64,000 nt of DNA, from NCBI GenBank assembly GCA_016869765.1, contig VGES01000007.1, positions 13,708 through 77,707 of the forward strand. The letters are read 5' to 3'. The notes beneath the pieces are model-generated. The model was not told where the DNA came from and searched no databases. It saw only the letters and a program-made list of their open reading frames with translations. The DNA comes from Alphaproteobacteria bacterium (GTDB lineage Bacteria; Pseudomonadota; Alphaproteobacteria; SHVP01). Shown here one piece after another: positions 5,801-51,703 of the stretch. The translations under genes were made by a program, and so were the position numbers. Numbering within the stretch: position 1 is the stretch's first letter; each line of letters opens with the position of its first letter.

Positions 5801-7328
5801 GTCGACGGCGAAAGTAGTTCGTCCAGTTATCGACGTTGGTCTTTCGCTTCGAGCGCTCCAAACGGGCGATTGCAGGATCTTCATAGAAGGAGTCGTTGTT
5901 GTAGTGCGTCGTCGATATCTCTTCAATGATGGCGCCGGTCAGGGTGTGGAACTTGTGCCAGCTTTCTGGTTCAACCAGGAATGTGTCGCCGGGCGTAAGG
6001 GAGAGGTGGAAGCCGTTCTTGACGATTTCGAGGTCTCCATCGATGAGTTGGAAGGTTTCTTCTTTCCTTTTGTGGAAGTGGTACGGATGCTGCTGTCGGG
6101 GAAGCTGGACGACCAGTTTCTTCGCGTATTCGCGATTGATGCAAGTGATAATCACGGCGCCATATTCGCGAAATCGCTTGAGGCCGTAGTGGTGGGAGAT
6201 TTCGATCGAGGCATCGGCGTTGATGTGGACGTTTGCCTGGTTGAGCATGCCGCGAACCTGCAGCATGATTTGATAGATCAGCTGATCGTCGGACACGGTT
6301 GGAAGCGACAGCCCGCCGGGCAACGGGGCCAACGCCGGGTAATCCTTATCGGCGACCAATCCTTCGCGCCAGCTTCCGCTGATCAGTTGGCCGTCCGAAA
6401 CCGGCATTGCGAAGAACACGTCGTCACGGGTCAGTACTTGACCCTTTGTCGTAGCCTGCTTCAGAAAGACCCCTCGCTTCAACTCAAGCAGGGTCCGTCG
6501 TTCTTCCGGTGAGGAAGGCGGTCGGTCGGGGGCCCCAAGCATGGTCTTTGCTTTCGCGTGGGAGGCAAGCCATGTTTCGATTTGGGCGGGCGTGGACGAG
6601 TAACCGTTCAGCGTGTAGCGGTCGTTACCAATGCCAACGTGACGCTCAAAGAGGCGAGCCCCTTTTGCAAGGGCGATCTTGACGGCGTCGACGTTGTTCG
6701 GGTCCTCGTGGGTTGACCAACCGATCGGGACGCTCCGATATCGGTTGACCATCGCGGAAATCTGGTTGAGTTGCAGAAGCTCGTCGGGTGTCGGGTAAAT
6801 CGAGACGCAATGCATCAGCGCGAAGTCGACCTTCTCTGCCTCGAGGAAATTTACCAACCAGTCGATTTCGGCAATGCGCAAACCCGCGGTGGACACGACG
6901 ACTGGCTTTCGGCTCTGGGCGACTCGTTCGAGCAATGGCCGGTCATCCGCGGAGCAACTTGCGACCTTGATGATGTCCAGGTCCATGTTTTCGATGACAT
7001 CGACAGATTCCTCGTCGAATGGCGTGCACATGGTCAGCAGACCGGCGTCTTTAACCGATTTGGCCAACGACCGAAAATCATCCATTGACAGCCGGGTTTC
7101 GGAAAATCGCTTGATGAACTTCAGGTCGGTGCGAGTTCGATAATCCGGATGAATGAAGGAATCGAGTTGCCGAAACTGGAACTTTAGCGCTCCCCGAACC
7201 TTGGCGGCACGACTGACGCTTCCCACTGCGCCGATGATCTGTTGAGCGTGGGCGAGGTCCCCTTGATGGTTGTTGGCCAGGTCGTATATGAACAATTCAT
7301 CGAAGCTGAAAGTTTTCATTCCCTGCAT
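5790..7328 (-). CDS. NeuB-family nonulosonate/ulosonate synthase #1 fused to a C-terminal cupin domain (512 aa)
   Basis: N-terminal ELFIYDLANNHQGDL...KFQ is NeuB-like and an SAF-like segment ELKRGVFLKQATTKGQVLTRDDVFF follows. An extra 150 aa or so follows, with cupin motifs HPYHFHKRKEETFQLIDGDLEI and LTPGDTFLVEPESWHKFHT. Confidence 0.75.
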   Translation of the reverse strand: MQGMKTFSFDELFIYDLANNHQGDLAHAQQIIGAVGSVSRAAKVRGALKFQFRQLDSFIHPDYRTRTDLKFIKRFSETRLSMDDFRSLAKSVKDAGLLTMCTPFDEESVDVIENMDLDIIKVASCSADDRPLLERVAQSRKPVVVSTAGLRIAEIDWLVNFLEAEKVDFALMHCVSIYPTPDELLQLNQISAMVNRYRSVPIGWSTHEDPNNVDAVKIALAKGARLFERHVGIGNDRYTLNGYSSTPAQIETWLASHAKAKTMLGAPDRPPSSPEERRTLLELKRGVFLKQATTKGQVLTRDDVFFAMPVSDGQLISGSWREGLVADKDYPALAPLPGGLSLPTVSDDQLIYQIMLQVRGMLNQANVHINADASIEISHHYGLKRFREYGAVIITCINREYAKKLVVQLPRQQHPYHFHKRKEETFQLIDGDLEIVKNGFHLSLTPGDTFLVEPESWHKFHTLTGAIIEEISTTHYNNDSFYEDPAIARLERSKRKTNVDNWTNYFRRRHAL

Positions 7329-7898
7329 CCTATCGTATCGTAGGCCTTCGCCATGAGGGCGACCCTCCCGTCGGACTGATCGCTATCCCGAAACAAGACC
7401 TCATCATAGGGGTTTCCACGGAGTCGTACGTCACTTGTCGCCGGCCGCCAGTAGGGGGTAAGAACCCTTCCGGCGTAGCGAAGATCAGCAACCCGCCTGA
7501 ACAATTTCGCTTGGGTCCGCGATGGCACGGGCTCGCGCGCGAATAGATTTCTGCGCGCTTCCGAACGCCGGTCGGCGCCAACAACGATCCAGTACGCCTT
7601 ACGCCTTGCTGAGGTGCATCGGCGATCCGTCGGGCCGCTGAACTGGATCGAGGAGCGTGAGTTCTCCCTTTCCCAGGGGGCGTCCCGTGATCGGCGTAGT
7701 TGAAGGGGGGCGCCAAGAGACACTGCAACATTCGACATTTTCGCTCGGCCACTGCGGGGCCATCCTCAGAATCGATCAAGGCGAACGTATTGGCGCTGAA
7801 AGGATTTCACACCTCACCCCCGGTGGGGGGAGGTGCACCAGCAGGTAACTTTTTCATTGGACCAAATTTGGGCCCAACAGTAGGTCGCCGCACGCGTT

Positions 7899-8639
7899 TC
7901 AGTCCGTCGAGGCCGTATCGGCGGAAGCGGAGTCACCGGAGCGGAACAACCATTCTGCGAAATGGAGGTCATGGACGTCGTCAATATTCACTACTGGGCG
8001 ATCCACGATGATGGCTTGGCATGATCTATCGATGATTTGCCCATGTTCCAGCAAGTGGGTGCGCTCGACCGCATAGCATAGCCCGTTACGGTGATAGTAG
8101 GCGGGGATCAGATGACGGTTGGAAAACTGTGTTCCATCGGCGACGTAGAAACGGATCCGACCATCGTCCGCCACCAAGAGCGTCTTCTGCGGAGTGAAGT
8201 GTGCCGGTGTGCGGGAGATAGTCGCCGCCGCAGCGTGACCGTCGACGGCAACTGCTCGAACTGTCCTTTCTGCGTCGTGCGAAATGCGAAGCGGACTTGT
8301 CGGCTCAAGCAATATTGAAACGTCAAATATCCGACCATAGTGGCACTCAGCTGCCCGCCAAGCGTGCTGCCACATCGCCACGGAGGTTGCATAGTCTCCT
8401 GCAAGTTCGGGTGGCCTGCGAAAAAAGTCGTCGAGACCATGACGTCTCGCCTCTTCGGCGATCATCTCGTCGTCGGTGGATATGAGGGCGGCATCCACCC
8501 ACGGGAGGGCCCGCGCGAACCGTGCAGCGCGCCCAACTAGACTTGTTCCGCCGACGGTTCTCAGGTTTTTTCCAGGGATTCCCTTAGAGCCTCCGCGTGC
8601 CGGCACGACGGCGAGGATCGACTTCCCTGCAATCGTCAT
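7899..8639 (-). CDS. Acylneuraminate (CMP-nonulosonate) cytidylyltransferase, NeuA-like #2
   Basis: ILAVVPARGGSKGIPGKNLRTVGGTSL signature. A 4-nt overlap with the upstream Gfo/Idh/MocA gene. Confidence 0.8.
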   Translation of the reverse strand: MTIAGKSILAVVPARGGSKGIPGKNLRTVGGTSLVGRAARFARALPWVDAALISTDDEMIAEEARRHGLDDFFRRPPELAGDYATSVAMWQHAWRAAECHYGRIFDVSILLEPTSPLRISHDAERTVRAVAVDGHAAAATISRTPAHFTPQKTLLVADDGRIRFYVADGTQFSNRHLIPAYYHRNGLCYAVERTHLLEHGQIIDRSCQAIIVDRPVVNIDDVHDLHFAEWLFRSGDSASADTASTD

Positions 8640-9652
8640 TCTAGTTGGACACCCTCTAACGACACACGACGACCCTCGGAGCTGCTCGTACGAGCTGCTT
8701 CGATGATCTCAAGCACACGCCGCCCATCGGATGCCGTGCATGTTGGCGATGTTCTTCGAGCACAGACGTCAAGAAACTCCCTAGCAACGGCCAAGAACAT
8801 GTCATTGCGCTCGCAGCAAAAGTCCTTGTCCTTCCACCCCGGTGCTGTCTCGGTGCTTACGGAAATTCGGTTCGGATTCTCGCGCCAAATCAACGTCCCA
8901 TGATCACCCAGGAACGTAATGGTCTTCTCGTGTGGTCGACCAAGAATATCGAGGTGAAGCGCAACTCGAAGCCCGTTTCGGTAACCGACCGACATGTCGA
9001 CATTGTCGTCGACGTCGATCTCAAGTTGGCCGAGCTTGGCGACGTCGGCATGCACCCAAGATGGTCTTCCGAACAGCCAAAGCATAACGTCAATCCAATG
9101 ACTCTCGTCCAAAAGAGCCCCGCCCCCCAACGCCTTGCTCGACATGAAGAAGTCTTGGTAGCGTTCCCATGGATGCCAGTCGGCGAGATGAGCTGAGATG
9201 ACCATACGTACGTGGCGGAGCGTCCCGATAGTGTTGGCCTCAATCAAATCGCGCGCCTTGCGGAGCGGCTCCCACCAACGCCAAGTGTAGCCCAATAGAA
9301 GCGGCGCTAGGCCGGTTTCGGTCAAGCGCTCCAAGCGGACGGCACCCTGCAGCTCCGGCGAGATTGGTTTCTCCAGCAGGACGGGGATTCCGCGCTGCAA
9401 GGCTTCTGTCGCTTGGTCAACATGAAACACTGGTGGCGACCCAATCACCACGCCGGTTAAGTCGTGGTGAGTGGCCAACGCCTCCGACACGTGCGGGTGA
9501 CCCGCGACCGTTGGAACCTCGCTCGACAGTTCAGCGCGTCGATCGGCCCTCGGGTCGACGCAAGAAATTCGACAGCCAAGCGTCGCGAGGTTTCTCGCGT
9601 GACGTCTTCCAACGCTACCACTTCCGACGATCAAGATATGAGGGCCATGCAT
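8636..9652 (-). CDS. Gfo/Idh/MocA-family NAD(P)-dependent oxidoreductase
   Basis: N-terminal Rossmann ILIVGSGSVGRRHARNL and a family-typical EKP motif (LLEKPIS). Confidence 0.75.
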   Translation of the reverse strand: MHGPHILIVGSGSVGRRHARNLATLGCRISCVDPRADRRAELSSEVPTVAGHPHVSEALATHHDLTGVVIGSPPVFHVDQATEALQRGIPVLLEKPISPELQGAVRLERLTETGLAPLLLGYTWRWWEPLRKARDLIEANTIGTLRHVRMVISAHLADWHPWERYQDFFMSSKALGGGALLDESHWIDVMLWLFGRPSWVHADVAKLGQLEIDVDDNVDMSVGYRNGLRVALHLDILGRPHEKTITFLGDHGTLIWRENPNRISVSTETAPGWKDKDFCCERNDMFLAVAREFLDVCARRTSPTCTASDGRRVLEIIEAARTSSSEGRRVSLEGVQLE

Positions 9653-11242
9653 CTAGCGTATTCCGGTGACCATCGTTTGATAGGCGTTAGGATCGAAGTC
9701 CGCGCGAACGAAAAGCGGCTCGGTTGCCTTCCAACTGTGTAGAGCCCTCGAGAAAGACTCGTGTGAGGTAACGTGCCTAGTCGGGAGGCCAAAACCTTCG
9801 GCATACCGGAGCCAGTCCCGATGGGGAAACAGGAGGCTACGCTGGTCCAACCCATCTCGAATCGCTCTCACACGAATCGAACCGAACCCGCCGTCGCTCA
9901 TCAAAATGATTGCTATCGGTAGGCGAGCGGATACAGCTATTTCAATGTCGGCCCAATACATTCCGATACCGCCGTCGCCGATCAGCAACACGGTGGGAAC
10001 TGTTGAATCAACAAGAGCAGCAGCAAGTGCCATCGGTAGTCCAACACCCATGTCTCGTCCTGAACCCGAACCCAGGTAGGTGTTTGGCCCCGTGGCTTGC
10101 CAGGCATGTTCTGCAATCGTGCAAAAGTAGCCAGTATCGACGACAAGCCGTACGTTGCTGCCGAATCGATTTTGGATGGCCGCGCATGCCGGCCCTGGCA
10201 GAAAGGGTTCCGCGTCGAATCGGCGTTTGAGAGCGGCGCGATGGCGACTGAGCTCTTCCAACCCCCAAGACCGTGCTCGTAGCGATTCGAATACCAACTG
10301 AACGGAGTTTGGTTCGAGCCGATGATCGAACGGGATTTTCGAGCATGCCGCCGGGATATCGTCGACACCGATTGATGAACAGGGGAAGCGCCCGTAGTTT
10401 AAGAGTTCATTCGCGCGCAGGCCGAGTCCGACGACCAAGTCCGCAGCGGACAAGATTGTTGCTTCGGGAACAAGCTCCAGTCCGACTCCTGTATAAACGC
10501 CGGCGGCATGCTTTAGGCGCTCGTCAATCAGGCCTTTGGCCGAAGCCGTTGTGAAAACTGGGACGTTGAGCGCAGCCAGTTCCGGGCCCCACCCACGTCG
10601 CAACGCTAGCGCTCCGGCGACCACTACGGGCCGCTTCGCGCGCTCGACCAACTCAAGTCCGGCCCTATCTCGGGACGAAGTTTCTGGTTCGAAAGGTGGG
10701 GGCAGCTCGCTCTTCGGTGGCTTCGGGGCGAGTTGGAAGACGACGGGGCCGGGCGGTTCCGTTGCAGCCCAGCGTGCCATCGCCCGATAGCTTGGTCCAT
10801 CCTCGGACAACGATCGAATTCCCTTGCTGACCGCCATAACGAGGCCCTTATGGTCCAGCCACTTGTGTACCGTATTGGTTGGCTGTTCCGCCGCGTATGC
10901 TTCCGCCACGGCGACCATCGGGAAGCCTTCAAGACAGCAAGCCGCAAGCCCGGGCACCATGTTGGCAAGACCGGGACCTTTGATGGCAACTGCCACACCA
11001 GGGATTTCGGTCAACCTGCCCAGTGTACCCGCCATTATTGCGGCGGTTCCCTCGAAATGTGTCGTACGGAAGTTGACGCCCCGGCGACTCAATGCGTCGA
11101 TCAACGAAAGCGTTGAACCACTGCCGGGAATTCCAAAAACATGCTTCAACCCTGCCGAGGCAATTTCATCTGCTAGACGCGCGATGCTCACGGCGTTGAA
11201 AGACCAAGGTGATGAGCGACCTTTTCCGCGGCTCTTGCGCAA
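9653..11242 (-). CDS. Thiamine-pyrophosphate enzyme, acetolactate-synthase-like (three-domain ALS/YerE-type); start uncertain
   Basis: N-terminal HVFGIPGSGSTLSLIDAL (Pyr domain). C-terminal TPP motif LLIGDGGIGMYWADIEIAV...MSDGGFG. The 55-nt overlap with the upstream gene suggests a later start. Confidence 0.75.
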   Translation of the reverse strand: MRKSRGKGRSSPWSFNAVSIARLADEIASAGLKHVFGIPGSGSTLSLIDALSRRGVNFRTTHFEGTAAIMAGTLGRLTEIPGVAVAIKGPGLANMVPGLAACCLEGFPMVAVAEAYAAEQPTNTVHKWLDHKGLVMAVSKGIRSLSEDGPSYRAMARWAATEPPGPVVFQLAPKPPKSELPPPFEPETSSRDRAGLELVERAKRPVVVAGALALRRGWGPELAALNVPVFTTASAKGLIDERLKHAAGVYTGVGLELVPEATILSAADLVVGLGLRANELLNYGRFPCSSIGVDDIPAACSKIPFDHRLEPNSVQLVFESLRARSWGLEELSRHRAALKRRFDAEPFLPGPACAAIQNRFGSNVRLVVDTGYFCTIAEHAWQATGPNTYLGSGSGRDMGVGLPMALAAALVDSTVPTVLLIGDGGIGMYWADIEIAVSARLPIAIILMSDGGFGSIRVRAIRDGLDQRSLLFPHRDWLRYAEGFGLPTRHVTSHESFSRALHSWKATEPLFVRADFDPNAYQTMVTGIR

Positions 11243-12135
11243 ACCCGCGCCACGGCATCGGGGCTAAAGCCACCGCAATGGGGCGTGATAAGAAGATTGT
11301 CGTGATGCCTCGCGTAATTCACCAGCGGGTGATCGGCGATGTCAGGCTCGCCGTCGAGAACATCAACGGCAGCCGCAGCCAACTTCCCCGTCTTGAGCGC
11401 ATCTAGCAACGCGAGTTCATCCACGACGGCACCCCGAGAAGTATTGATCAGGATGGCGGTGGGCTTCATCGCCGCGAACTGGCTCGCGCCCAGGAGGCCG
11501 CGTGTCGACTCGCTCAAATGGACGTGGATTGACACGACATCTGAGCGGGCTAGGACTTCCTCCAAAGTCCCGCGCTCGACGTCGGCGGGCCAAGGTTCGA
11601 TATACGGGTCCGTACCAAGGACGGTCATGCCAAACGCCCGGCCATATCGAGCCATCCACTGCCCAATCCTGCCGCAACCAATCAGCCCAAGAACGCGACC
11701 GTTGAGCATCAAGCCAGGAAAGTCTTCGCGTACCCAAGATCCAGATCGAACATGCGCTATCGCTGGCACGAGGCGGCGAGCGCAAGCGAGAACCAGAGCC
11801 CAGCTCAATTCGGCCGCGGGGGTGAGGTTATTCAGCAACGGTCTATCTTCGCGCAACGTTAGAACAACAATCCCGTTGCTTGCCGCCGCCGAATGATCGA
11901 TGTGATCTGACCCTGTGGTTGCAGTCGAAATGATGCGCAACTGCTTTGCTCGCGTAAGGACCTCGGCAGTCAGCCGAACTTTCATAGAGGCGTCGATCAG
12001 GGCGTTAGCGGTGGTTAGTGCGTTGGCGACCGCAATTTCCGTAGCCGGCACGTGTTTGATCTTTGCCCGCACGTTGAGAACGTCTTTTACGGCGACGAAT
12101 CCTGCAGTTGCGCCGATGTACGCAACTTCGATCAC
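11188..12135 (-). CDS. D-isomer-specific 2-hydroxyacid dehydrogenase family (NAD-binding)
   Basis: GLIGCGRIGQWMARYGRAFGMTVLGTDPY glycine-rich NAD fold and the catalytic region ...RGAVVDE...LITPHCGG. Confidence 0.75.
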   Translation of the reverse strand: MIEVAYIGATAGFVAVKDVLNVRAKIKHVPATEIAVANALTTANALIDASMKVRLTAEVLTRAKQLRIISTATTGSDHIDHSAAASNGIVVLTLREDRPLLNNLTPAAELSWALVLACARRLVPAIAHVRSGSWVREDFPGLMLNGRVLGLIGCGRIGQWMARYGRAFGMTVLGTDPYIEPWPADVERGTLEEVLARSDVVSIHVHLSESTRGLLGASQFAAMKPTAILINTSRGAVVDELALLDALKTGKLAAAAVDVLDGEPDIADHPLVNYARHHDNLLITPHCGGFSPDAVARVCARAAEKVAHHLGLSTP

Positions 12136-13310
12136 ACGTGATCTCCGAAGGAGAGGCGCTTCTGAACCTGAAAGGTCGAGGTAGCGAGTAGGTCGGCGAT
12201 TCGCTTGCCCGCGTGGCCGTCTCCGAATCGTGTCGACCGGCGGTAGCGGCCGTGATCGATCTGAAAGTGAACGGCCCTCTCGATGTCCCTGGCTTCGTAC
12301 CCTACGTCCCTGACATTCTCATCTCGTTCGCGCCCAGCCTGGCGCGTCCCGATGTTTACGGCTGGCACGCCCAAGAACGACCCTTCGCGGAGCGCGCTGG
12401 ATGAATTCCCGACGAGGCAAGACGCGTGATAAATCAGACGTGCGTAGTCTTCGACCGAGAAGTTGCGGTAGAAATGAATCGGCGCCGAAGGGTGCTGTTC
12501 GCGAAATTGGCGGAGCCCTTTGGAGATGTCATCCGAGCCCGCATCAACATTGGGCCATAACCATATCGCTTGAAGGCCGATGCGAAGCACCGCAGACAGA
12601 GTCTCGCGGATTTGTTTTAGGCCGTTGCCGTACTCGGTGGTTACCGGGTGCTGGAGCACGACGACATAGCGGCGGCTGGGGTCAATCGTTGCGCCAACGC
12701 CCTTTCCACCGCTGAAGAAATCGGCGCGCAGGGATAGGTCAAGCGCAGCCAGGACATCAATTGATGGGCAGCCGGTGAGGTGGACGGTTGCCCGCTCTTC
12801 GCCCATCCGCACCAGGTTCTCCGCTGCTAGCGCGGTTGCGGGAAAATGAATGTGTGCAAGCTTAGTAACAGCATGCCGTACACTCTCATCGATCGACCCC
12901 GTGACCTCCCCTCCCTGGGTATGAGCAACCGGTATATTCATGTAGGCGCCCGCAATTGCGGTGGCGATCGTCTCGAATCGGTCAGCCACGGTCAGCACTA
13001 CGTCGGGTCGAATGTTCTCAAAAGTGGTTGCAAGCTCCATGATGGCCAACCCTGTCGACTTGGCCATTGTCGTTGGGGTTTCCCCCTCGACAATGGAATA
13101 AACCGTCGCAACGGGCGAAAACCCATCGCGGGCGATCACCTCGCTGACGTTTCCGAATCGCCAAAGCAGCGCAGATGCCCCGATCACAAGCTGAAGTTCG
13201 AGTCTCGGATGCTCGGTGATCGATCGCAAGACCGTCTTGATCCGGCCGTAGTTCGCGCGGCTATTGACGACGACGCAAATTTTGCGCCGACTCCCCGTCG
13301 AATGGCTCAT
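12132..13310 (-). CDS. neuC: UDP-N-acetylhexosamine 2-epimerase, hydrolysing (NeuC/LegG-like)
   Basis: KICVVVNSRANYGRIKTVL...HTQGGEVTGSIDESVRHAVTKLAHIHF matches the hydrolysing UDP-GlcNAc 2-epimerase family. Confidence 0.75.
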   Translation of the reverse strand: MSHSTGSRRKICVVVNSRANYGRIKTVLRSITEHPRLELQLVIGASALLWRFGNVSEVIARDGFSPVATVYSIVEGETPTTMAKSTGLAIMELATTFENIRPDVVLTVADRFETIATAIAGAYMNIPVAHTQGGEVTGSIDESVRHAVTKLAHIHFPATALAAENLVRMGEERATVHLTGCPSIDVLAALDLSLRADFFSGGKGVGATIDPSRRYVVVLQHPVTTEYGNGLKQIRETLSAVLRIGLQAIWLWPNVDAGSDDISKGLRQFREQHPSAPIHFYRNFSVEDYARLIYHASCLVGNSSSALREGSFLGVPAVNIGTRQAGRERDENVRDVGYEARDIERAVHFQIDHGRYRRSTRFGDGHAGKRIADLLATSTFQVQKRLSFGDHV

Positions 13311-13361
13311 CTTCGTTGTTGCTTTCCAACACGTCTCAAGTTCGGCACCGAATGGGTCACG

Positions 13362-14513
13362 CTAGGAATCCGATTGGACATCATCCCACGTGAGTATTCG
13401 AAGTTCGTTAACGGATCGGCGAAGGCGTTTGCCAACGAGGCGTGGCAAATCGGACTCCGGAATACCGCCCCCGGGTTTCTTCATCGTCAACATCTCGGCG
13501 GTAAGGACTGTGCCGGCAGACAATTCGCGTGATGGCGCGACGCTCTTGGTGAAAGTCGAACGCATCGTTGACAGCTCGCGAGCCATCGAGTCCTTGTCGA
13601 TCGGATTCGCGTCCATCGTCCAGATGCTGGATCGAGCTTCCGACAATCGCCGAAACTCGGCGATCGTCAAAGAAGACGTGGTGTCAGGGCCAAACATACG
13701 ACGATCGAGAGTTAGGTGGGCTTCGACGAGGTCGAACCCCCGCATGATCGTGGCGATCCCCGGCCAGATAGTACCGGAATGATCTGAAAGCCCCACTGGA
13801 CACCCGAAGCGCCGACGATACTCATTCATGACGTTCAGTCCGACCTCAGTCAACGGGGTCGGATACTTGCTAGTACACTGCAGGAGGGCGATGGCACTAC
13901 CGCTGCCGACGATCCGATGAACGGCTCGGCTGACGTCCTCGTATGTACACATTCCAGTGGAAAAGATTATTGGCAGCTTTGTCGCGGTCATTGCCTCGAT
14001 AAGGTAGGACGATGAAAATTCCCCGGAGCCGACCTTCCATGCAGGGACACCAATTTTCTCCAGCAGCTCGATAGCTTCGACCGAGAACGCGCTGCTCAAG
14101 AAAACCAGATTTCGCTCTCGAGCATGATCGGAAAGACCCAACCAATGCTCGGGAGAAAACTCCATTCGTCTCCAATAGTCATAGCGGGTCTGATCTTGGC
14201 GACTAAATCGCACGCGAAAAGGCTCGTCCAGTGTCGACTCGGCGGTGGCTATGTGCGTCTGGAACTTGACCGCGTCAGCTCCCGCTTCAGCGGCGGCGTC
14301 CACGAAGGCATGTGCCATTCCCAGCGATCCATCGTGCGCTTGGGCGATCTCGGCGATGAGGAAGGGCGGATGGCCGGATCCGATGTTGCGCCCGCAAATG
14401 GAGAACGTGTCATGGGCCCTCGAGTTGGTAGCTTTGTCCACGCCGTTATACCCGCGCCTCCGCGGCCGTCGCTCTATCTGGCGCGTCGGGCGGCCGCAAA
14501 GAACCGTTCTCAA
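13362..14513 (-). CDS. NeuB-family N-acylneuraminate/nonulosonate synthase #2 (with SAF domain); 5' end probably shorter
   Basis: IGSGHPPFLIAEIAQAHDGSLGMAHAFVDAAAEAGADAVKFQTH plus a C-terminal SAF segment LSAGTVLTAEMLTMKKPGGGI. The ORF-track start overlaps the ABC gene by 68 nt. An in-frame GTG at 14441 lies 4 nt after the ABC stop. Confidence 0.8.
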   Translation of the reverse strand: MRTVLCGRPTRQIERRPRRRGYNGVDKATNSRAHDTFSICGRNIGSGHPPFLIAEIAQAHDGSLGMAHAFVDAAAEAGADAVKFQTHIATAESTLDEPFRVRFSRQDQTRYDYWRRMEFSPEHWLGLSDHARERNLVFLSSAFSVEAIELLEKIGVPAWKVGSGEFSSSYLIEAMTATKLPIIFSTGMCTYEDVSRAVHRIVGSGSAIALLQCTSKYPTPLTEVGLNVMNEYRRRFGCPVGLSDHSGTIWPGIATIMRGFDLVEAHLTLDRRMFGPDTTSSLTIAEFRRLSEARSSIWTMDANPIDKDSMARELSTMRSTFTKSVAPSRELSAGTVLTAEMLTMKKPGGGIPESDLPRLVGKRLRRSVNELRILTWDDVQSDS

Positions 14514-16263
14514 GGAAAAGAACTTGATCAGCGATTCGGATCACCTCCGGTTGGTGGCTAATTGCAATCACTGTTGTGGAATGGGCAATGACCGAGAGCC
14601 GTTTGATGAGATCCCGCGCAGTGGCTGAATCCAATGAGGCCGTTGCTTCATCAAGGATGAGGAGGGCGGGCCGGCGCGCCAAAGCGCGCGCCAGCACGAG
14701 ACGTTGGCGTTGACCACCCGATAGTCTTCCGCCGCGTTCGCCGACCACAGTATTGAGTCCTTCGGGTAGCGCCGAAACGAACTGATCTGCCCCCGCAGTC
14801 GCCAGTGCACTGGTGATATCGTCTTCGCTGATGTTGGATCGGCCAAGCGTCATGTTGGCTCGGATGGTGTCGTTTAGGAGGACGGGCTCTTGGGGAACAT
14901 AGCCGATGTGGTTGCGCCAGTCGGCGAGAGCAATCGTCGCGAGATCTTTGTCATCTATCAAGACGCGGCCGGCCTTTGGCCAGTAGAGCCCGACAATCAA
15001 GTCGATCAAAGTGGTCTTTCCGGTGCCGGAGGGGCCGACAATGACGGTGATTTGTCGAGCAGGAATGCGCGCGGTCACCAGGGTTAGGACATCTTTCTCC
15101 GAGTGTCCGAAGGAAACGCGGTCGAAGGTGATTGCATCGGTCAAGGATGCTCGCGCCTGTCCTCCGCTGGCTTCTCGGCGCTCAGCAGTCGTTTGTGTCA
15201 TTCCTTCCACAAACCAGAACCCTCCCTCGGATGCTACGACAGTCTGGATATTGCCTTGGATGCCCGTAACTGACGCGATGGCTCGCGAAAATATGACGCC
15301 GAGCGTCATCAAGGTTTCAAGCGGCGTACCGCCCAGGGTGAGCAGATAATAGGCGCCACCGGCCAAAGCGATCGCGACCAGCGGTTCAGTAACTTGAGGC
15401 AATGTGAGTAGAAGGATCGTCAATCTCCGTCGCACCTTCTCAAGAGCGACGATGTCGGCCGTGATCAAGTCGCCGAGGTACCGCGTGCCGTTCATGATCT
15501 TGGCCGGTTTCATAGAGGCGAGACCATCAACTAAGCGAGTCATGAGGGCATTCTGAACCGTGGTTTGCTCGGCTCCAACTCTTCGAGTTTTTCGAATGTA
15601 GCCGAAGAGAACTAGGCTGATGAGCCCCCCAAATAGAATTCCGGCGGTCGTAACTTGCCAGGAGATCATCAGGGCCACGCCAGTCAAGATGACGACGCGG
15701 ATCACTGACGCGGCAAACTTGCTCGATGCAACGTAGCCGTTTCCACCGCGTCCCGCCTCGGTTCCCATGGCCGAGGCGATTCGTCCAGCCGGCATGTCGA
15801 TCAAGAGATCCCACCTTGCCGAGAGGATGCCGTCGCTCAGCCGCTTTCGCATATCCGCCACCACCAGTTGACCGGTGTGGGCCACGACGAAGGTCGACGA
15901 TATCGAGAAAAGCGCCTTCACCAACATCGTCAAGACAAACAGGGCGATCATAACCTCCAGGGTTGGCGCAACGGAAACGAACGACAGGGCCTCTGTTACA
16001 GATTGGGTGATCACATCATCGGACCGTATTTCGTCGGTTCCCCGGACGAACAAGGTGAGGAGTGGCAACAAGACCGCGAGGCCGACTCCCTCAAGTAGTC
16101 CGCTCAACAGCAGGGCCAAGACTGTGGCGACGGCGTGAAACGGGTAGCGCCTAGCTATCAGCGACACCATCGCCCACGTTCGGCGAGGAACAATTTCCGA
16201 GGCGGTTGACGTCACCGTAGATTGAATCCTACTAGATGCTCGCGGAACGACGTCGGGTCGCAA
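14446..16263 (-). CDS. ABC exporter, fused permease-ATPase (MsbA/PglK-like)
   Basis: Six predicted TM helices N-terminally. Walker A GPSGTGKTT, ABC signature LSGGQRQRLVLARAL, Walker B LILDEATASLD. Confidence 0.85.
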   Translation of the reverse strand: MRPDVVPRASSRIQSTVTSTASEIVPRRTWAMVSLIARRYPFHAVATVLALLLSGLLEGVGLAVLLPLLTLFVRGTDEIRSDDVITQSVTEALSFVSVAPTLEVMIALFVLTMLVKALFSISSTFVVAHTGQLVVADMRKRLSDGILSARWDLLIDMPAGRIASAMGTEAGRGGNGYVASSKFAASVIRVVILTGVALMISWQVTTAGILFGGLISLVLFGYIRKTRRVGAEQTTVQNALMTRLVDGLASMKPAKIMNGTRYLGDLITADIVALEKVRRRLTILLLTLPQVTEPLVAIALAGGAYYLLTLGGTPLETLMTLGVIFSRAIASVTGIQGNIQTVVASEGGFWFVEGMTQTTAERREASGGQARASLTDAITFDRVSFGHSEKDVLTLVTARIPARQITVIVGPSGTGKTTLIDLIVGLYWPKAGRVLIDDKDLATIALADWRNHIGYVPQEPVLLNDTIRANMTLGRSNISEDDITSALATAGADQFVSALPEGLNTVVGERGGRLSGGQRQRLVLARALARRPALLILDEATASLDSATARDLIKRLSVIAHSTTVIAISHQPEVIRIADQVLFLENGSLRPPDAPDRATAAEARV

Positions 16264-16286
16264 ACGACATGGTGGCGGTGCGGGTA

Positions 16287-17186
16287 TCAGAGTCGCAGGG
16301 CATTCGAACGATATTCGACAAATACGGAGTGGCGCTCGTGCCCTGGGGAGAATATCCCCCTAGCGTGCCAACCAAAGGTGTTCGCAATCATAAGCGTATT
16401 GGCGTCGCAGCTCAGAGTCACCTTCCTCAGGCCCCACTTCTCGAGATCGACATCGGTGATGCGCGGCGCGCGCTGTCCTATGCCAACGCTGTTCGAATAC
16501 TCGAACAGGAGCCGGCGCGGATGAAGGCGATGGGACTTGGGGACGAAGACAAAGGCAGCGCTATCCGCATCCGTTGGCCGCAGGTACAAATATGCCTTGG
16601 TGATCGAATAGAACGTATCCGAATGCAGGTCACTATTCGTATCTTCGGTATAGGCAGCGGTAGGACCGCCGTCGTGTAACAGGGCGCGCTCAAACCGCGC
16701 CTTGAACATACCGCGACGATACAGCGTTTCCTCTGTTTGGCCCTCGTGGGCCATGACGATTCTCACGAATCGTTCGTCACGCAAGACTGAACGCGTCGTT
16801 TCTGGATAAATACTCTCGTTCCCGCTGATCGTTTCCGAGTGAACAACGGTTCTTACACGATCGAGTAGGGGTAATATTCTTTGTTCCCGCAGCCGCTGTT
16901 GCGCTGCGTCGAATTCTCGCCGAACCAATGCAAGGTCGCGTTCGCTCAGAAAATTGGGGATCGTGCAGTAGCCCTGCTCTATCAATTGACGAGTGGGGGT
17001 CTCTTTCGTTGATCGATCTCGCATGCGACGCACGTGCAAGAGAGTGCGGGCCGCGCAAATTCGCGCCAGTTGAAGGCCTAGGCGGTTCAGCGCCGCAGAT
17101 GGGATCAGCTTGTCGTTGGACAGGATATTTGCCAGTTGACTCATGTCGATATCCGGATCGCGATCAAGACGAAACAGGCGTTCCAA
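16287..17186 (-). CDS. Putative Fe(II)/2-oxoglutarate dioxygenase, PhyH-like; start uncertain
   Basis: GYCTIPNFLSERDL start-like motif and an HSD...H arrangement (LHSDTFYS ... FGWHARG) typical of phytanoyl-CoA-dioxygenase-type folds. Weak. Confidence 0.45.
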   Translation of the reverse strand: MERLFRLDRDPDIDMSQLANILSNDKLIPSAALNRLGLQLARICAARTLLHVRRMRDRSTKETPTRQLIEQGYCTIPNFLSERDLALVRREFDAAQQRLREQRILPLLDRVRTVVHSETISGNESIYPETTRSVLRDERFVRIVMAHEGQTEETLYRRGMFKARFERALLHDGGPTAAYTEDTNSDLHSDTFYSITKAYLYLRPTDADSAAFVFVPKSHRLHPRRLLFEYSNSVGIGQRAPRITDVDLEKWGLRKVTLSCDANTLMIANTFGWHARGIFSPGHERHSVFVEYRSNALRL

Positions 17187-43005: not shown

Positions 43006-44053
43006 GGCGCATGAACACAACTGTCAAGAAAAATAGAAGAGGAAGATAGCTCGTACGATACCTTATCGCCGACCCCCCGTTCATTATCCCCAGAGGGTAG
43101 GTTGCGAACAGCAACAGCAAAACACCAAACGCTGCGATCCAGAAGCTGAACAGCGGGGCGCGAAGCGCACTCCGAAGCATGACAAGGCTCATGACGAGGA
43201 TGAGCGCAATGCTCTCCCAAAACGCGGCTAAGCGGAGAAATCCCTGACTGGTCTCCTGCCACGTCGGGCCAACAAACGCTTGTAACATCCCCTCCGGTGC
43301 CTTGATCAAGACATCGCTAGGATCGTGCCAAAACGCCGGGCGAGATCCGCTTTGTCCGGCGAAATGCGGGACGATCTGCAGCGCTAGCTTCCCAACTGTG
43401 TCCTGTAGCGCAATGAGAAGAGCGAGCGCAATGAACGCCCCGAGCAGTACCGACAGCGCGCGCTGCCGTACAAATCGTTGCAGGTATCCGCCCACGAGAA
43501 TGAGGCCGACTGCCGGTACGTAGTGAACCTTGAAAATGGCGATTGTGGTAATCGCGACCACATACACGAGTCGCAGGCGACCCCGCCCCTCGAACAATTC
43601 GATCAGGTACGCTATGCAAAATCCAAGTGCACCGACGACGAGGGCTTCCTTGCCTGCCACAGAAGACCAAATTGTAAAGGACGGTGTCATCAAGAGTCCG
43701 AAAACCAGAAGACGTCCCCTGGGTTCCACGCGACGCAGGAATGCTACGAGCCCCATGAAAGCAATTGTCTGGAAGACGAAATTCGCCAAACTTGCGCTTC
43801 CACCGGTCGCATAGTTGAGCAGGAGGCCAAGGCCGTCCGCAATGGCCGTCGAAAGCGTCCACGTCGATGCGCCAGACAGCTCGAATTCCGATCCAAGTTG
43901 GTAACGCGAGGAGTCGCCGAGCGAAGTAAGTCCAGAGACAACGTTCTGCGCGACAAACGAATAGAGCGCCCTATACAACCAAAGCACACAATAGAGAGTC
44001 CACCAGATGCGCCGGGACCTTGTTGACTCGAAGAAGGAGGGTCGGACTGTCAT
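42920..44053 (-). CDS. Polytopic membrane protein, possibly O-antigen polymerase/ligase-like
   Basis: 377 aa, about 10 TM helices. No motif-level assignment. Confidence 0.35.
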   Translation of the reverse strand: MTVRPSFFESTRSRRIWWTLYCVLWLYRALYSFVAQNVVSGLTSLGDSSRYQLGSEFELSGASTWTLSTAIADGLGLLLNYATGGSASLANFVFQTIAFMGLVAFLRRVEPRGRLLVFGLLMTPSFTIWSSVAGKEALVVGALGFCIAYLIELFEGRGRLRLVYVVAITTIAIFKVHYVPAVGLILVGGYLQRFVRQRALSVLLGAFIALALLIALQDTVGKLALQIVPHFAGQSGSRPAFWHDPSDVLIKAPEGMLQAFVGPTWQETSQGFLRLAAFWESIALILVMSLVMLRSALRAPLFSFWIAAFGVLLLLFATYPLGIMNGGSAIRYRTSYLPLLFFLTVVFMRLNWRPSTRRENVGEFLSSRLASTQSSQK

Positions 44054-44334
44054 CGTTCTACGTTTGTCAATCTTCTACGTCTTTGCACACCGCGCCAAGT
44101 CGGTTGCACGTCCAGTGACGCGCCCGTTGCGGTATGCCAAGCCGCGGTGGAATGACCGGCTCAATCCGGCAGATCCGCGCCGGCGTCGGCTGGCAGCAGT
44201 TGCCGGGAGCGCCGGACATATTCGATCGCGGAGAAGACCCACGAGCCCGATCAAAAGCGACGGCCAGCGCCTGCCTACTTGGCCCATGCGTCAGGAAGGT
44301 TATCAACGAGCGGCCGTAGTATTCCGGCAACGAG

Positions 44335-44363
44335 AACATGCCCTTCTGCCGAAACATGCCCTT
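44335..44363 (+). promoter_or_regulatory. Perfect 11-bp direct repeat AACATGCCCTT x2 in the rmlB operon leader
   Basis: Copies at 44335-44345 and 44353-44363 (18-bp periodicity), about 250 nt upstream of the rmlB ATG in a 560-nt non-coding leader. Confidence 0.3.
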
Positions 44364-44613
44364 GAGCCCCAAGCGCAATCGGCCGCCGCTTGTCGAACAC
44401 GTAGGATCGAATCGTCAAACCTGTCGCACCTCGGCGGCTATTCTCCCAAGGGGCTCACGTTCCGGCTACGGTGAACCAACGCAGCGCTTGGCTTTGAGCG
44501 GTCGATACACCTCACCCAGGCAGAAGTATGGCGCGGATACGCGAAAGACCAGTCGAATTGGCCCCGGAAAACGTGCTAGGGCCTGACTGAGGTACTCCAT
44601 TGCGACAGTTCAG

Positions 44614-45684
44614 ATGAGAGTCTTGGTCACAGGCGGCGCTGGCTTCATTGGTTCCGCAGTCGTGCGGCGGATGCTGTCCGACCCGGCGACCGTCGCCGTA
44701 GTCGTCGTCGATAAGCTGACCTATGCCGGTCATCGGGTCAATCTGACGCAGGTCGAGGGGAACCCGCGCTACGCCTTCGTTCAGGCCGACATCGTCGACG
44801 GGGCGGCAATGGCAGCTGTCTTCGATGAGCACCAACCCGACTCAGTCATGCACCTGGCGGCCGAGTCCCACGTCGACCGATCCATCGACGGACCGCGACC
44901 TGCAGTCGAGACGAACGTCCTTGGGACGTTCACGTTGCTTGAGGCCGCTCGCGCCTATTGGGGCCAGATGAAGGGTGAGCGGCGCGATCGTTTCCGTTTC
45001 CACCACGTTTCGACGGATGAAGTGTTCGGCAGCTTGGGGCCGGAGGGAGTGTTCACCGAAGCCTCGACCTACGACCCGCGCTCGCCTTACTCCGCCAGCA
45101 AGGCCGGATCCGATCACCTCGTAAGAGCTTGGCATCACACGTACGGTTTGCCAGTTGTCGTGAGCAACACGTGCAACAACTATGGGCCGCGGCAGTACCC
45201 CGAAAAGCTCATCCCCGTCCTCATCGGTCGTGCACTGACGGGTGAGCGACTGCCGATCTACGGCTCGGGTACCAACGTCCGCGATTGGATCTTCGTAGAG
45301 GATCACGCCGAAGCATTAATCGCCATTCTCCAACGCGGCCGAGCCGGAGAGTCCTACAACGTCGGCGCACGCGCAGAACGCACCAACAATCAGGTCGTCG
45401 AGCTGGTATGCCGCATGCTCGACGAGTTGATTCCGCAATCCACGCACCGCCCGCACAGACAGCTCATCGAGTATGTGGCCGACCGTCCGGGACACGATCA
45501 GCGCTACGCGATCGACCCATCGAAGGTGGAGCGCGAATTGGGCTGGCGACCGAAAGTAAGTTTCGAACAAGGGCTTCGCATGACTGTGGAATGGTACATC
45601 TCCAACCAGGAGTGGTGCCGTGTCGTCACGCGGGATCGCTATGATGGCGGTCGATTGGGGGTCACTGCAGGGTATCGGCGATGA
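44614..45684 (+). CDS. rmlB: dTDP-glucose 4,6-dehydratase
   Basis: [31 protein letters not shown] catalytic YxxxK, and the typical 356 aa. Confidence 0.85.
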
Positions 45685-46559
45685 CGCGCCGCGGCATCAT
45701 TCTGGCCGGTGGTAGCGGTAGCCGCCTCTATCCGGCAACGCTTGCGGTGAGCAAGCAACTGCTACCGGTCTATGACAAGCCGATGATCTACTACCCGTTG
45801 ACCACCCTGATGATGGCGGGGATCAGGGAAATCCTTCTCATTACGACGCCTCGTGACCAAGCCGCGTTTCAGGCGCTCCTGGGCGACGGAACGCAGTGGG
45901 GCCTGGAGATTTCATATGTTGCTCAACCCAGGCCCGCTGGGATTGCCCAAGCGTTTCTCCTTGGACGGTCGTTTGTTGGACGGAGCCCCGTGGCGCTGAT
46001 TCTCGGCGACAACCTGTATTTCGGCGACGGTCTCCGGCTCCATCTACAACGGGTCAGCGAGGATGCTGGCGGTGCCACGGTCTTCGCGTACCAGGTCCGG
46101 GATCCGGAGCGCTACGGTGTGGTCGAGCTCGATGCATCGGGTCGAGCCATAAGCATCGAAGAGAAACCAATCAAACCCAAGTCGCGACTCGCGGTGACGG
46201 GGTTGTATTTTTACGATCACAACGTGGTGGCGATCGCCGAGTCCTTGCGGCCCTCGGCGCGCGGTGAACTCGAGATAACGGATGTCAACGCCCAATACCT
46301 CGCCGCTGGTCAACTCAAGGTCGAAGTGCTAGGGCGCGGCATCGCGTGGTTGGACACCGGGACTCATCAGGCATTGCTGCACGCTCAACAGTTCGTCGAG
46401 GTCGTAGAGACTCGGCAGGGGCTGAAGATCGCATGTCCGGAGGAGATCGCGTGGCGGATGGGCTACATCACAGCCGCCCAACTCGAGGCGCTGGCGCAGC
46501 CGTTGGTGCCGAGCGGGTACGGCGCTTACCTGCTCGACTTGCTCCGATACTCGCCCTAA
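45681..46559 (+). CDS. rmlA: Glucose-1-phosphate thymidylyltransferase
   Basis: [36 protein letters not shown] is essentially the RmlA signature. Confidence 0.9.
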
Positions 46560-46569
46560 ACATGGCGCG

Positions 46570-47568
46570 ATGAAAGCGATCGTCACAGGCGGCAGCGGTT
46601 TCATCGGCAGCCATCTCGTCGACCTGTTGCTGGCCAAGGGCCATGATGTCGTGGTCATCGACAACCACAGCACGGGTCGGGCGGCCAATCTCGCCCATGT
46701 CCACGATCGCATTCGCCTCGTCGAGGCAGACATTGCCCAGGGCGGGCGTTGGCAAGCCGAACTGACGAGCGGTTCTTGGGTTTTCCACTTGGCGGCGTTG
46801 GCCGACATCGTGCCATCGATCCAGAACCCCGAAGGCTATTTCCGAGCCAATGTCGATGGCACGTTCAATCTTCTCCGGGCAGCACACTCCGCCGGCATTG
46901 GACGCTTGGTCTACGCTGCATCGTCTTCGTGTTATGGCATTCCCGATGCCTATCCGACGCCGGAATCGGCGGAGATGCGACCGCAGTACCCTTACGCGCT
47001 CACCAAACGTTTGGGGGAGGAGCTCGTTCTGCATTGGGCCCAGGTCTACAAACTCCCGGCCCTATCCTTACGGTTCTTCAACGTCTATGGCCCGCGATCC
47101 CGCACGTCCGGCACCTACGGCGCGATGTTCGGCGTTTTTCTCGCCCAGAAGCTGGCGGGGAAGCCGTTTACGATTGTCGGTGACGGCACGCAGACGCGGA
47201 ATTTTACCTATGTGACCGACGTGGCGGAGGCGGTTTATGCGGCGGCGAGCAGCCGCGTTGTCGGTGAAGTATTCAACGTCGGCAGCGGCGCCACCGTATC
47301 GGTGAACCGTATCGTCGAGTTGCTCGGTGGTTCCGCGGCGTATATTCCGAAGCGGCCGGGTGAACCCGATATGACGTTCGCCGACATTTCGAAGATCGCG
47401 CGCGCCATCGGTTGGCGGCCGCGTATCCCGATCGAGCGGGGCGTCGCGGAGCTGCTGCGCCATATCGACTACTGGCGGGAAGCCCCGGTGTGGGAGCCCG
47501 CCTCGATTGCGGAGGCCACCCGAGATTGGTTCCGGTTCCTCGGTGGCAACGACGCGGGGCGACGATGA
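46570..47568 (+). CDS. NAD-dependent sugar-nucleotide epimerase/dehydratase (short-chain dehydrogenase/reductase family)
   Basis: MKAIVTGGSGFIGSHLVDLLL and YALTKRLGEEL (YxxxK). Confidence 0.75.
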   Translation: MKAIVTGGSGFIGSHLVDLLLAKGHDVVVIDNHSTGRAANLAHVHDRIRLVEADIAQGGRWQAELTSGSWVFHLAALADIVPSIQNPEGYFRANVDGTFNLLRAAHSAGIGRLVYAASSSCYGIPDAYPTPESAEMRPQYPYALTKRLGEELVLHWAQVYKLPALSLRFFNVYGPRSRTSGTYGAMFGVFLAQKLAGKPFTIVGDGTQTRNFTYVTDVAEAVYAAASSRVVGEVFNVGSGATVSVNRIVELLGGSAAYIPKRPGEPDMTFADISKIARAIGWRPRIPIERGVAELLRHIDYWREAPVWEPASIAEATRDWFRFLGGNDAGRR

Positions 47569-49435: not shown

Positions 49436-49455
49436 AATTCACCTGGGGACAGCCG

Positions 49456-50481: not shown

Positions 50482-50500
50482 CGGACCCCGCCCGACCAGG

Positions 50501-51630: not shown

Positions 51631-51663
51631 GGCGTGAACACTAGGGTGTTCATGCCATGAACG
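51623..51663. promoter_or_regulatory. Tandem palindromic operator-like element in divergent regulator/HK promoter region
   Basis: GTGTTCA-n5-TGAACAC-n4-GTGTTCA-n5-TGAACG: four alternating 7-bp half-sites. The regulator ATG (cat at 51628-51630) lies inside the first half-site. Confidence 0.4.
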
Positions 51664-51703
51664 TCAAGGACCGCGCGTTGACAGTGGCGTCGTCCGGAGG
51701 ACA

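Follow-up and report, generated by a model that had tools for sequence, protein, structure and literature searches.

A conserved six-gene cassette that places a thiamine diphosphate enzyme and two dehydrogenases within a predicted Neu5Ac-type sialic acid gene set

Gene content and organization of the locus

The stretch of DNA analysed here (the window) comprises 64,000 nt of an Alphaproteobacteria bacterium (SHVP01) and corresponds to positions 13,708-77,707 of the forward strand of contig VGES01000007.1 (assembly GCA_016869765.1). It carries a cassette of six genes, all on the minus strand, in which an acetolactate synthase (ALS)-type thiamine diphosphate (ThDP) enzyme and two dehydrogenases are embedded among genes of sialic acid type. 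The cassette begins with a NeuB-type synthase gene (NeuB2; 13362-14513; PF03102, 209 bits, plus a SAF domain) and a gene for NeuC, a hydrolysing UDP-GlcNAc 2-epimerase (12132-13310) that passes the curated cut-off of TIGR03568 (368 vs 236 bits). These are followed by genes for an NAD-dependent D-2-hydroxyacid dehydrogenase (HADH; 11188-12135; PF02826, 2-Hacid_dh, 182 bits), the three-domain ThDP enzyme of 512 aa (9653-11191; PF02776, PF00205 and PF02775) and an NAD-dependent sugar oxidoreductase of the Gfo/Idh/MocA family (GFO; 8636-9652; PF01408, PF02894 and PF22725). The last gene of the unit encodes a NeuA-like CMP-ulosonic-acid synthetase, or cytidylyltransferase (NeuA; 7899-8639; PF02348, CTP_transf_3, 52 bits). 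The first-pass annotation of the window had described an ALS-type ThDP enzyme, an HADH and a GFO lying between NeuA and NeuC, and Pfam and NCBIfam scans confirmed all five genes.

The NeuC/HADH and HADH/ThDP junctions in the window are GTGA overlaps and the GFO/NeuA junction is an ATGA overlap, while the TAG stop codon of the ThDP gene is followed by the ATG of the GFO gene with zero spacer. Because all four junctions overlap or have no spacer, the five genes from NeuC to NeuA are read as one translationally coupled unit. For the ThDP gene, the GTG at 11191 is the most likely start codon, rather than the TTG at 11242, since the GTGA overlap with the HADH stop codon then arises and the recorded protein is 512 aa long. 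The true start of NeuB is probably located downstream of the TTG at 14513, as its orthologues measure ~346-356 aa.

Conservation and distribution of the cassette

An alignment-based search of species-representative genomes retrieved 80 loci; a single-protein query retrieved none. Synteny was counted over 81 non-duplicate related loci, with the loci that had enough flanking sequence as denominators. The immediate upstream neighbour of the ThDP gene is HADH in 72 of 73 loci; GFO lies downstream of the ThDP gene in 68 of 71, and a cytidylyltransferase gene comes after GFO in 61 of 66. NeuC, as part of a NeuB-NeuC pair, is directly upstream of this core in 45 of 63 loci. The arrangement is far from chance, and HADH-ThDP-GFO-NeuA constitutes a core of four genes whose arrangement is fixed across ~80 genomes and more than 12 phyla.

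All 80 retrieved carriers are metagenome-assembled genomes (MAGs), one of them that of a methanogen. They belong to the Alpha-, Gamma- and 'Delta'-proteobacteria, Acidobacteriota, Nitrospirota, Gemmatimonadota, Planctomycetota, Bacillota, Calditrichota, Verrucomicrobiota, Omnitrophota, Rokubacteria, Binatota and Marinimicrobia, together with one Methanoregula archaeon. Three annotated contexts, in an Acidobacteriota genome, a Burkholderiales MAG and a Rhodospirillales MAG (the last beside flgK and flaF), share the order [ABC]-NeuB-NeuC-(x)-HADH-ThDP-(x)-GFO-cytidylyltransferase.

The phylogeny of the ThDP enzyme mixes phyla, with Methanoregula placed among Thermodesulfobacteriota and Nitrospira next to Burkholderiales. 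The ThDP gene is absent from all 40 relatives of the window's genome that were compared, 16 of which belong to its family, and the G+C content of the glycan island is 55-59%, against 62-66% farther along the window. On account of the mixed phyla in the tree, the 0/40 relatives carrying the gene and the lower G+C of the island, the cassette is interpreted as horizontally spread. The placement of the Methanoregula ThDP enzyme points to transfer between domains. In this Methanoregula MAG (locus L013, 6879-13263), the full six-gene cassette is found in a methanogenic archaeon. A plasmid search for the ThDP enzyme gave a best match of 28% identity, and no cultured plasmid-borne copy was found.

Taken by intervals, the G+C content of the window is 55-60% over the glycan locus (1-44000) and 61-66% over 44000-64000, a contrast that is consistent with an acquired surface-polysaccharide island. 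Upstream of the cassette lies a minus-strand gene for an ABC exporter with fused transmembrane and nucleotide-binding domains (TMD-NBD; 14446-16263; PF00664 and PF00005). An ABC exporter gene occupies the same upstream position in loci L001, L002 and L003 and is a frequent, though not universal, neighbour of the cassette. A promoter and terminator scan of window positions 7200-16600 gave no signal above chance.

In other genomes the cassette also takes up accessory genes. S-adenosylmethionine (SAM) methyltransferase genes are found between NeuC and HADH in ~10 loci, and other inserts in or beside the cassette encode a sulfotransferase or a polysaccharide deacetylase together with a formyltransferase. 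These are typical sugar-tailoring enzymes by their predicted families, and they would fit a surface-glycan building block. In an Alphaproteobacteria MAG (L016, 11533-14017), an MBOAT O-acyltransferase gene and a gene for a 328-aa protein with no Pfam match replace GFO between the ThDP and cytidylyltransferase genes.

Relationships of NeuC, NeuB and NeuA

The best solved relative of NeuC is the epimerase domain of human GNE (4ZHT; 248 bits), with LegG at 187 bits (5XVS), and that of NeuB is NeuB/SiaC of Neisseria meningitidis (166 bits), with PseI at 118 bits. NeuB scores 281 bits with TIGR03569, under the cut-off of 400. It nevertheless keeps the positions aligned to SiaC E25, K53, Q55, K129, S132, E134, S154, S213, H215, E234, H236 and D247, which we take to be metal, phosphoenolpyruvate (PEP) and catalytic residues; substitutions are found at the positions of SiaC N184 (Ser) and R314 (Lys). 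NeuA has the CMP-N-acetylneuraminic acid (CMP-Neu5Ac) synthetases 6IFD and 1EYR as its best solved relatives, and its match to PseF (103 bits) falls below the cut-off of 206. Identities to orthologues are 51-62% for NeuB, 57-71% for NeuC and 55-66% for NeuA. No 4,6-dehydratase, aminotransferase or N-acetyltransferase was found in the conserved unit, either in the annotated contexts or in the related loci. As NeuC, NeuB and NeuA score nearest to GNE, SiaC and CMP-Neu5Ac synthetases, and as a dehydratase and an aminotransferase are lacking from the unit, we classify the cassette as of Neu5Ac type rather than of legionaminic acid (Leg) or pseudaminic acid (Pse) type.

The cassette-type NeuC gene is broken in two MAGs, by a frameshift in L104/L105 (genome G005, contig C16, 232357-233497) and by an in-frame TAG in L100 (genome G001, contig C34, 11793-12953). 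These copies could be attributed to decay or to assembly error.

Identity of the ThDP enzyme

In the NCBIfam scan, the IlvB equivalog model TIGR00118 matched the window's ThDP enzyme with 113 bits, against a cut-off of 538, and the models for AlsS gave 139 bits (NF006378; cut-off 510) and 121 bits (TIGR02418; cut-off 551). All 48 NCBIfam matches were far under cut-off, the best being PRK08322 (167 vs 509). The same genome, which is 99.6% complete, has a true ilvB (791 bits with TIGR00118) on contig C35, followed by ilvN (identified by ALS_ss_C and ACT) and ilvC (identified by KARI), whereas the neighbours of the ThDP gene in the window are HADH and GFO. The low TIGR00118 score and the true ilvBNC set on another contig bear out the first-pass view that the enzyme is not a branched-chain amino acid ALS.

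The predicted catalytic residues have been retained: E47 (the catalytic Glu), G405-D406-G407 and D433 (the ThDP/Mg motif) do not vary among 32 orthologues, and all family-invariant residues are present in the window enzyme. In Klebsiella pneumoniae ALS, the Glu and both Mg-binding Asp residues occupy the positions equivalent to E47, D406 and D433. An AlphaFold2 (AF2) model built from the alignment of the 32 orthologues reached a confidence (pLDDT) of 92, and its top fold matches are the FAD-free catabolic ALS enzymes of K. pneumoniae and Bacillus subtilis (template modelling score, TM, 0.84; identity 22-24%). The match to the central domain PF00205 is weak and partial (42 bits), and the best sequence matches are likewise catabolic ALS enzymes without FAD. 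Within the family the central domain is strongly conserved, with R198, K219, E224, T234 and D251. Benzaldehyde lyase and 2-hydroxyacyl-CoA lyase are also among the solved relatives.

Maximum-likelihood analysis joined 78 relatives in one clade (SH-like approximate likelihood ratio test, SH-aLRT, 100), which a long stem parts from the genome's own IlvB, three more paralogues and a PRK08266-type enzyme; the outgroups were own-genome paralogues. More than 100 orthologues share 45-53% identity. In an exhaustive profile search, no fewer than 150 clusters (at 50% identity) scored E<1e-96, their proteins being unfused and 510-525 aa long in nearly all cases. No fusion protein above 897 aa was found in this search, and the best 150 representatives measure ~510-525 aa except for fragments and one 671-aa protein. 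From these comparisons the ThDP enzyme is assigned as the founder of a distinct clade that is neither IlvB nor AlsS.

The ALS-superfamily fold and motifs are what would be expected of an ordinary ALS or other housekeeping enzyme that merely happens to be located in a glycan locus. The IlvB and AlsS scores (113 vs 538 and 139 vs 510), the true ilvB-ilvN-ilvC genes elsewhere in the genome, the fixed position of the gene between HADH and GFO in ~70 genomes and its presence in 0 of 40 relatives make this explanation extremely improbable. The earlier suggestion that the trio of HADH, ThDP enzyme and GFO serves one of three nonulosonic acid (NulO) synthases holds up in positing a specialised, non-ilv ThDP carboligase that would work on a sugar, but the trio belongs to one defined six-gene unit.

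Phosphonopyruvate or sulfopyruvate decarboxylase was considered as an identity for the ThDP enzyme and rejected: those enzymes are without the central domain, and PEP mutase was not present in the Pfam scans. The window enzyme itself has an unusually long terminal branch in the tree (1.07, where the median is 0.31), and its identity to orthologues is 45-53%, whereas the products of the neighbouring genes reach 55-70%. The only clearly longer relative is the 671-aa protein (P0262), in which residues 3-451 match family positions 6-447 and ~220 unrelated residues follow, which could reflect either a gene fusion or a frameshift in the gene call.

The two dehydrogenases

All NCBIfam equivalogs for HADH are below cut-off, including that for phosphoglycerate dehydrogenase (PGDH, TIGR01327; 210 bits vs 454). 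The triad R234/E263/H286, the motif G153-x-G155-x-x-G158 and D176 are invariant in 12 orthologues. At the positions of human PHGDH R54 and R75, which we take to be phosphate-holding arginines, HADH has an invariant A49 and C71, respectively. HADH is thus placed by its scores in a subfamily of its own, nearest to phosphoglycerate dehydrogenases yet under their cut-off. Since it keeps the Arg-Glu-His triad, GxGxxG and D176, it should act on a 2-hydroxy or 2-oxo carboxylate.

The best NCBIfam match of GFO is IolG (TIGR04380; 97 bits vs a cut-off of 355), and its match to the UDP-GlcNAc 3-dehydrogenase model NF040723 is weak (45 bits). Invariant in 12 orthologues are the Rossmann motif GSGSVG (G10-x-G12-x-x-G15), D33-P34, E94-K95-P96 and the catalytic motif GGGALLD182-E-S-H185 (G176-G177-G178...D182...H185). 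An Asp after the Rossmann motif marks NAD preference, and both HADH (D176) and GFO (D33) have one. The solved relatives of GFO are generic inositol and sugar dehydrogenases (93 bits), with the sialic acid C4 oxidoreductases NanOx (6Z3B) and YjhC (6O15) mid-list at 67-70 bits. Structure searches for HADH and GFO returned generic relatives only, from which no substrate could be read. Judged by their motifs, both enzymes look active.

The IolG match bears on the possibility that the trio breaks rather than makes a carbon-carbon bond. In inositol breakdown, IolG is the partner of the ThDP hydrolase IolD, and by analogy GFO could oxidise C7 or C8 of Neu5Ac and the ThDP enzyme could cut beside the ketone, in the manner of transketolase, IolD or benzaldehyde lyase, to leave a seven- or eight-carbon analogue. 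The lyases among the solved relatives of the ThDP enzyme would agree with such a reaction. We nevertheless consider it very unlikely, as IolD is absent from the top NCBIfam matches of the ThDP enzyme, HADH would be left without a role, and we know of no natural shortened sialic acid.

Two marine Rhodospirillaceae MAGs contain a second module (L106, 5828-9778; L107, 1948-5961) with the order NeuB-NeuC-HADH-cytidylyltransferase, without GFO and without an adjacent ThDP enzyme; its NeuB, NeuC and HADH are 32%, 35% and 42-43% identical to the window proteins. An HADH-family dehydrogenase can therefore sit in a sialic-type module alone, which bears on the role of HADH. A gene for a 544-aa ThDP enzyme near the second module was not counted in it, as it belongs to the PRK08266 family (765 bits) and has housekeeping neighbours.

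This module could be taken in support of another role for HADH and the ThDP enzyme, namely the supply of a small aldehyde or acyl unit (glycolyl, lactyl or glyceroyl) for an N- or O-substituent. NulOs with N-glycolyl and N-glyceroyl groups have been described, for which no genes are known (PMC5378307); the deacetylase and formyltransferase genes within some cassettes also indicate N-acyl exchange there. Against this, the conserved core is without an acyl- or alkyltransferase, a carrier protein or a ligase, an ALS-like enzyme that is presumably FAD-free would have no oxidant to reach the acyl level, and GFO would be left without a role. Side-group supply is accordingly improbable in our view, and with no transferase in the conserved core the 2-hydroxyacyl decoration entertained in the first-pass annotation was not upheld either.

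Comparison with known systems

No described Neu, Leg or Pse pathway with a ThDP enzyme was found among the papers searched, nor any description of this cassette, in agreement with the earlier statement that such an enzyme falls outside the described sialic, legionaminic and pseudaminic acid pathways. The only genetic precedent found is the sfmABCDE cluster of Shewanella oneidensis, the one published case found in which a NeuB-type gene is accompanied by the gene for an ALS-like ThDP enzyme. This cluster, with the NeuB-domain protein SfmA and the ThDP enzyme SfmB (SO_3262), is needed for a nonulosonate-containing flagellin glycan (PMC3765264). SfmB differs in its length of 581 aa, and its partners are a short-chain dehydrogenase/reductase (SDR) and a methyltransferase, without NeuC, HADH, GFO or a cytidylyltransferase.

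YerE-like ThDP enzymes put a decarboxylated 2-oxo-acid unit on a keto sugar, after which an NAD(P)H-dependent step follows, and their donors can be polyhydroxylated 4-hydroxy-2-oxo acids from a neighbouring aldolase (PMC9306805, PMC12247030). YerE/YerF, ErwE/ErwF, MMAR_2332 and MyGE likewise bring a three-domain ThDP enzyme of the ALS superfamily near NAD(P) oxidoreductases in a surface-glycan locus. Their adjacent maker of a 4-hydroxy-2-oxo acid is a pyruvate aldolase, whereas in the window cassette it is NeuB. Their context consists of CDP-4-keto-3,6-dideoxyhexose genes and CDP activation, as opposed to NeuB-NeuC...NeuA and CMP in the window and ~80 loci, and the window's partner oxidoreductases (2-Hacid_dh and Gfo/Idh/MocA) are unlike those of YerE systems; the comparison with YerE is drawn from published descriptions. 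Even so, YerE-type C-C coupling remains our leading model for the function that the ThDP enzyme may have.

With the CMP-Neu5Ac pathway of N. meningitidis (SiaA/SiaC/SiaB) and Escherichia coli K1, the cassette shares NeuC, a SiaC-like NeuB and a CMP-Neu5Ac-type NeuA. It differs in that HADH, the ThDP enzyme and GFO are fixed between NeuC and NeuA and that NeuB and NeuA are under their equivalog cut-offs, and its final sugar is probably not Neu5Ac. The AlsS enzymes of K. pneumoniae (1OZF) and B. subtilis (4RJJ) provide the nearest solved fold, are FAD-free and align in the catalytic Glu and Mg-binding Asp; the window ThDP enzyme is ~45 aa shorter, has no alsD neighbour and differs in residues close to the active site, such as an invariant R379 where AlsS has Gln. 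In the PtmF-LegF pair of Campylobacter, Plesiomonas and Vibrio, a gene for an ~330-aa oxidoreductase lies directly beside a CMP-NulO synthetase gene (PMC4481668). The likeness to GFO-NeuA is one of position, and the clusters concerned add PtmE, PtmA and LegB/C/H and are without a ThDP enzyme or HADH.

CMP-activated C10 ulosonic acids of unknown origin have been reported in Magnetospirillum gryphiswaldense (bioRxiv 10.64898/2026.04.20.719630; PMC8157484). They are Leg/Pse-like diamino sugars, for which the preprint proposes no genes (bioRxiv 10.64898/2026.04.20.719630). None of the 80 retrieved loci comes from that genus.

Split loci and the order of steps

The four-gene core is on its own, with unrelated genes around it, in a group of marine Rhodospirillaceae MAGs and in one Gemmatimonadaceae MAG; an adjacent NeuB-NeuC pair is kept elsewhere in these genomes, its NeuC being 68-69% (three Rhodospirillaceae) or 47% (Gemmatimonadaceae) identical to that of the window. 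The break in these split units always lies between NeuC and HADH, and the trio stays with NeuA. No cytidylyltransferase gene was found within ~7-8 kb of the detached pairs, so that the only activating enzyme for the NeuB product is the NeuA behind the trio. Because the break always occurs between NeuC and HADH, and because the detached NeuB-NeuC pair is without its own NeuA, the trio is probably active at a stage later than the synthase and prior to, or around, CMP activation. The first-pass annotation had the trio building a precursor for the synthase; the constant position of the split points the other way.

The same observation weighs on an early-branching route, in which GFO would oxidise UDP-GlcNAc or ManNAc, the ThDP enzyme would add a two-carbon branch, and NeuC and NeuB would carry the branched hexosamine on. 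Such a route could be argued from the weak matches of GFO to the UDP-GlcNAc 3-dehydrogenase model (NF040723) and to WlbA-type structures (3Q2I, 3Q2K), and from YerE, which works on a nucleotide-bound keto sugar. The cassette NeuB, NeuC and NeuA are furthermore conserved lineages of their own (55-70% identity across phyla), as might be expected for a modified substrate. In split units, however, the trio is always with NeuA and never with NeuC and NeuB; NeuC is above its curated threshold and closest to GNE, and NeuB keeps the SiaC-aligned active-site residues. We therefore regard branching ahead of the synthase as quite unlikely.

In the two annotated loci with a detached NeuB-NeuC pair (L109, 6493-11406; L110, 5833-10887), the pair is bordered on both sides by genes for M20-family amidohydrolases, and in L109 a NusG-like gene and a MarR-type regulator gene lie upstream of it. 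An N-deacylation step by these amidohydrolases is conceivable.

Proposed pathway

The reading that we favour, tentatively and with a little less than even confidence, is that NeuC-NeuB-HADH-ThDP-GFO-NeuA is a mobile six-gene pathway that makes Neu5Ac, remodels it by ThDP-dependent C-C chemistry and couples the product to CMP as a building block for a surface glycan. Starting from the joint travel of the genes, the Neu5Ac-type set, the kept catalytic residues and a ThDP enzyme that is neither IlvB nor AlsS, we infer the following steps. NeuC would release ManNAc from UDP-GlcNAc, and NeuB would condense ManNAc with PEP to Neu5Ac. GFO, with NAD+, would then oxidise one secondary hydroxyl of Neu5Ac or CMP-Neu5Ac to a ketone, a step that has chemical precedent in the sialic-acid-oxidising Gfo/Idh/MocA enzymes NanOx and YjhC. 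HADH would convert a small D-2-hydroxy acid into a scarce 2-oxo acid, our first guess being D-glycerate to hydroxypyruvate and our second glycolate to glyoxylate. HADH is proposed as the donor supplier because pyruvate and 2-oxoglutarate would need no dedicated dehydrogenase. The ThDP enzyme would decarboxylate the HADH-made acid at once, thereby pulling the unfavourable HADH oxidation, and would add the acyl-anion unit to the sugar carbonyl in a YerE-like manner. NeuA would form the CMP-sugar of the product, a C-branched or chain-extended sialic acid (C10-C11), which methyl-, sulfo-, formyl- and acyltransferases encoded in other genomes' cassettes could further decorate.

Several points weigh against this proposal. 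The oxidised position, the donor acid and the order of steps are guesses, and the nearest solved relatives of the ThDP enzyme, the catabolic ALS enzymes, use 2-oxo acids as acceptors, not sugars. Since a GFO-NeuA-like adjacency also occurs in ordinary legionaminic acid clusters (PtmF-LegF; PMC4481668), GFO may not be tied to the ThDP step. Likewise, the role of HADH may be independent of the ThDP enzyme, because two genomes have the NeuB-NeuC-HADH-NeuA module without an adjacent ThDP enzyme or GFO. Every carrier is uncultured, so that no chemical structure can be linked to the gene set. Finally, the HADH family usually works on its name-giving acid and Neu5Ac is itself a 2-oxo acid, which favours a scheme with Neu5Ac as the donor.

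In that scheme, open-chain Neu5Ac would be decarboxylated by the ThDP enzyme and the resulting C8 unit joined to a small carbonyl compound such as glyoxylate, whereupon GFO would reduce the new 3-ketone, HADH would re-oxidise the 2-hydroxy acid and NeuA would activate a C10 ulosonic acid. This would follow the 'unifying scheme', in which aldolase-made 4-hydroxy-2-oxo acids are ThDP donors for acyl-branched sugars, and ErwE, MMAR_2332 and MyGE accept, or have been proposed to accept, polyhydroxylated 2-keto-3-deoxy acids of C4-C8 as donors (PMC9306805). Each enzyme would perform its textbook chemistry (the ThDP enzyme on a 2-oxo acid donor, HADH on a 2-hydroxy acid and GFO on a sugar ketone), and the NAD-marking Asp in both dehydrogenases (D176 and D33) would suit a redox-neutral pair. 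A late operon HADH-ThDP-GFO-NeuA separate from NeuB-NeuC would agree with it as well, as would the known CMP-activated C10 ulosonic acids of M. gryphiswaldense (bioRxiv 10.64898/2026.04.20.719630; PMC8157484). On the other hand, the homologated acid would have an acetamido group (NHAc) at C6, the position that must supply the oxygen of the pyranose ring, and so would be unable to close the ring on which NeuA-type enzymes normally act. The reported C10 sugars are Leg/Pse-like diamino sugars and the cassette is Neu5Ac-like, 0 of the 80 carriers, all MAGs, are Magnetospirillum, and a B12 radical SAM methylase would be an equally good source of the tenth carbon. We consider Neu5Ac as the donor to be unlikely, and retain the addition of an HADH-derived unit to oxidised Neu5Ac as the preferred mechanism.

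Significance of the cassette

The cassette would combine two known kinds of system, a sialic acid pathway and ThDP sugar carboligation. To our knowledge, in all known routes to nonulosonic acids the nine-carbon skeleton arises in one NeuB reaction and only substituents are altered afterwards, and we know of no nonulosonic acid whose skeleton is extended or branched by a ThDP enzyme. A ThDP enzyme fixed in a sialic acid operon suggests a second C-C step on the finished skeleton, which would widen the chemistry of this class of sugars.

It is less likely than not, though conceivable, that the cassette is the missing route to C10-C11 CMP-ulosonic acids, with the ThDP enzyme extending or branching a finished sialic acid, and that such sugars are widespread on the surfaces of uncultured bacteria and also occur on one methanogen or more. 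Although common, the gene set is known only from uncultured organisms, which would explain why no structure has been assigned to it. It offers a clonable six-gene candidate for the origin of the higher-carbon CMP-ulosonic acids seen by mass spectrometry, and its ThDP enzymes, as new carboligases, may accept the polyhydroxylated substrates that are sought in biocatalysis. Sialic-acid-like sugars shape how phages, hosts and immune systems see microbes.

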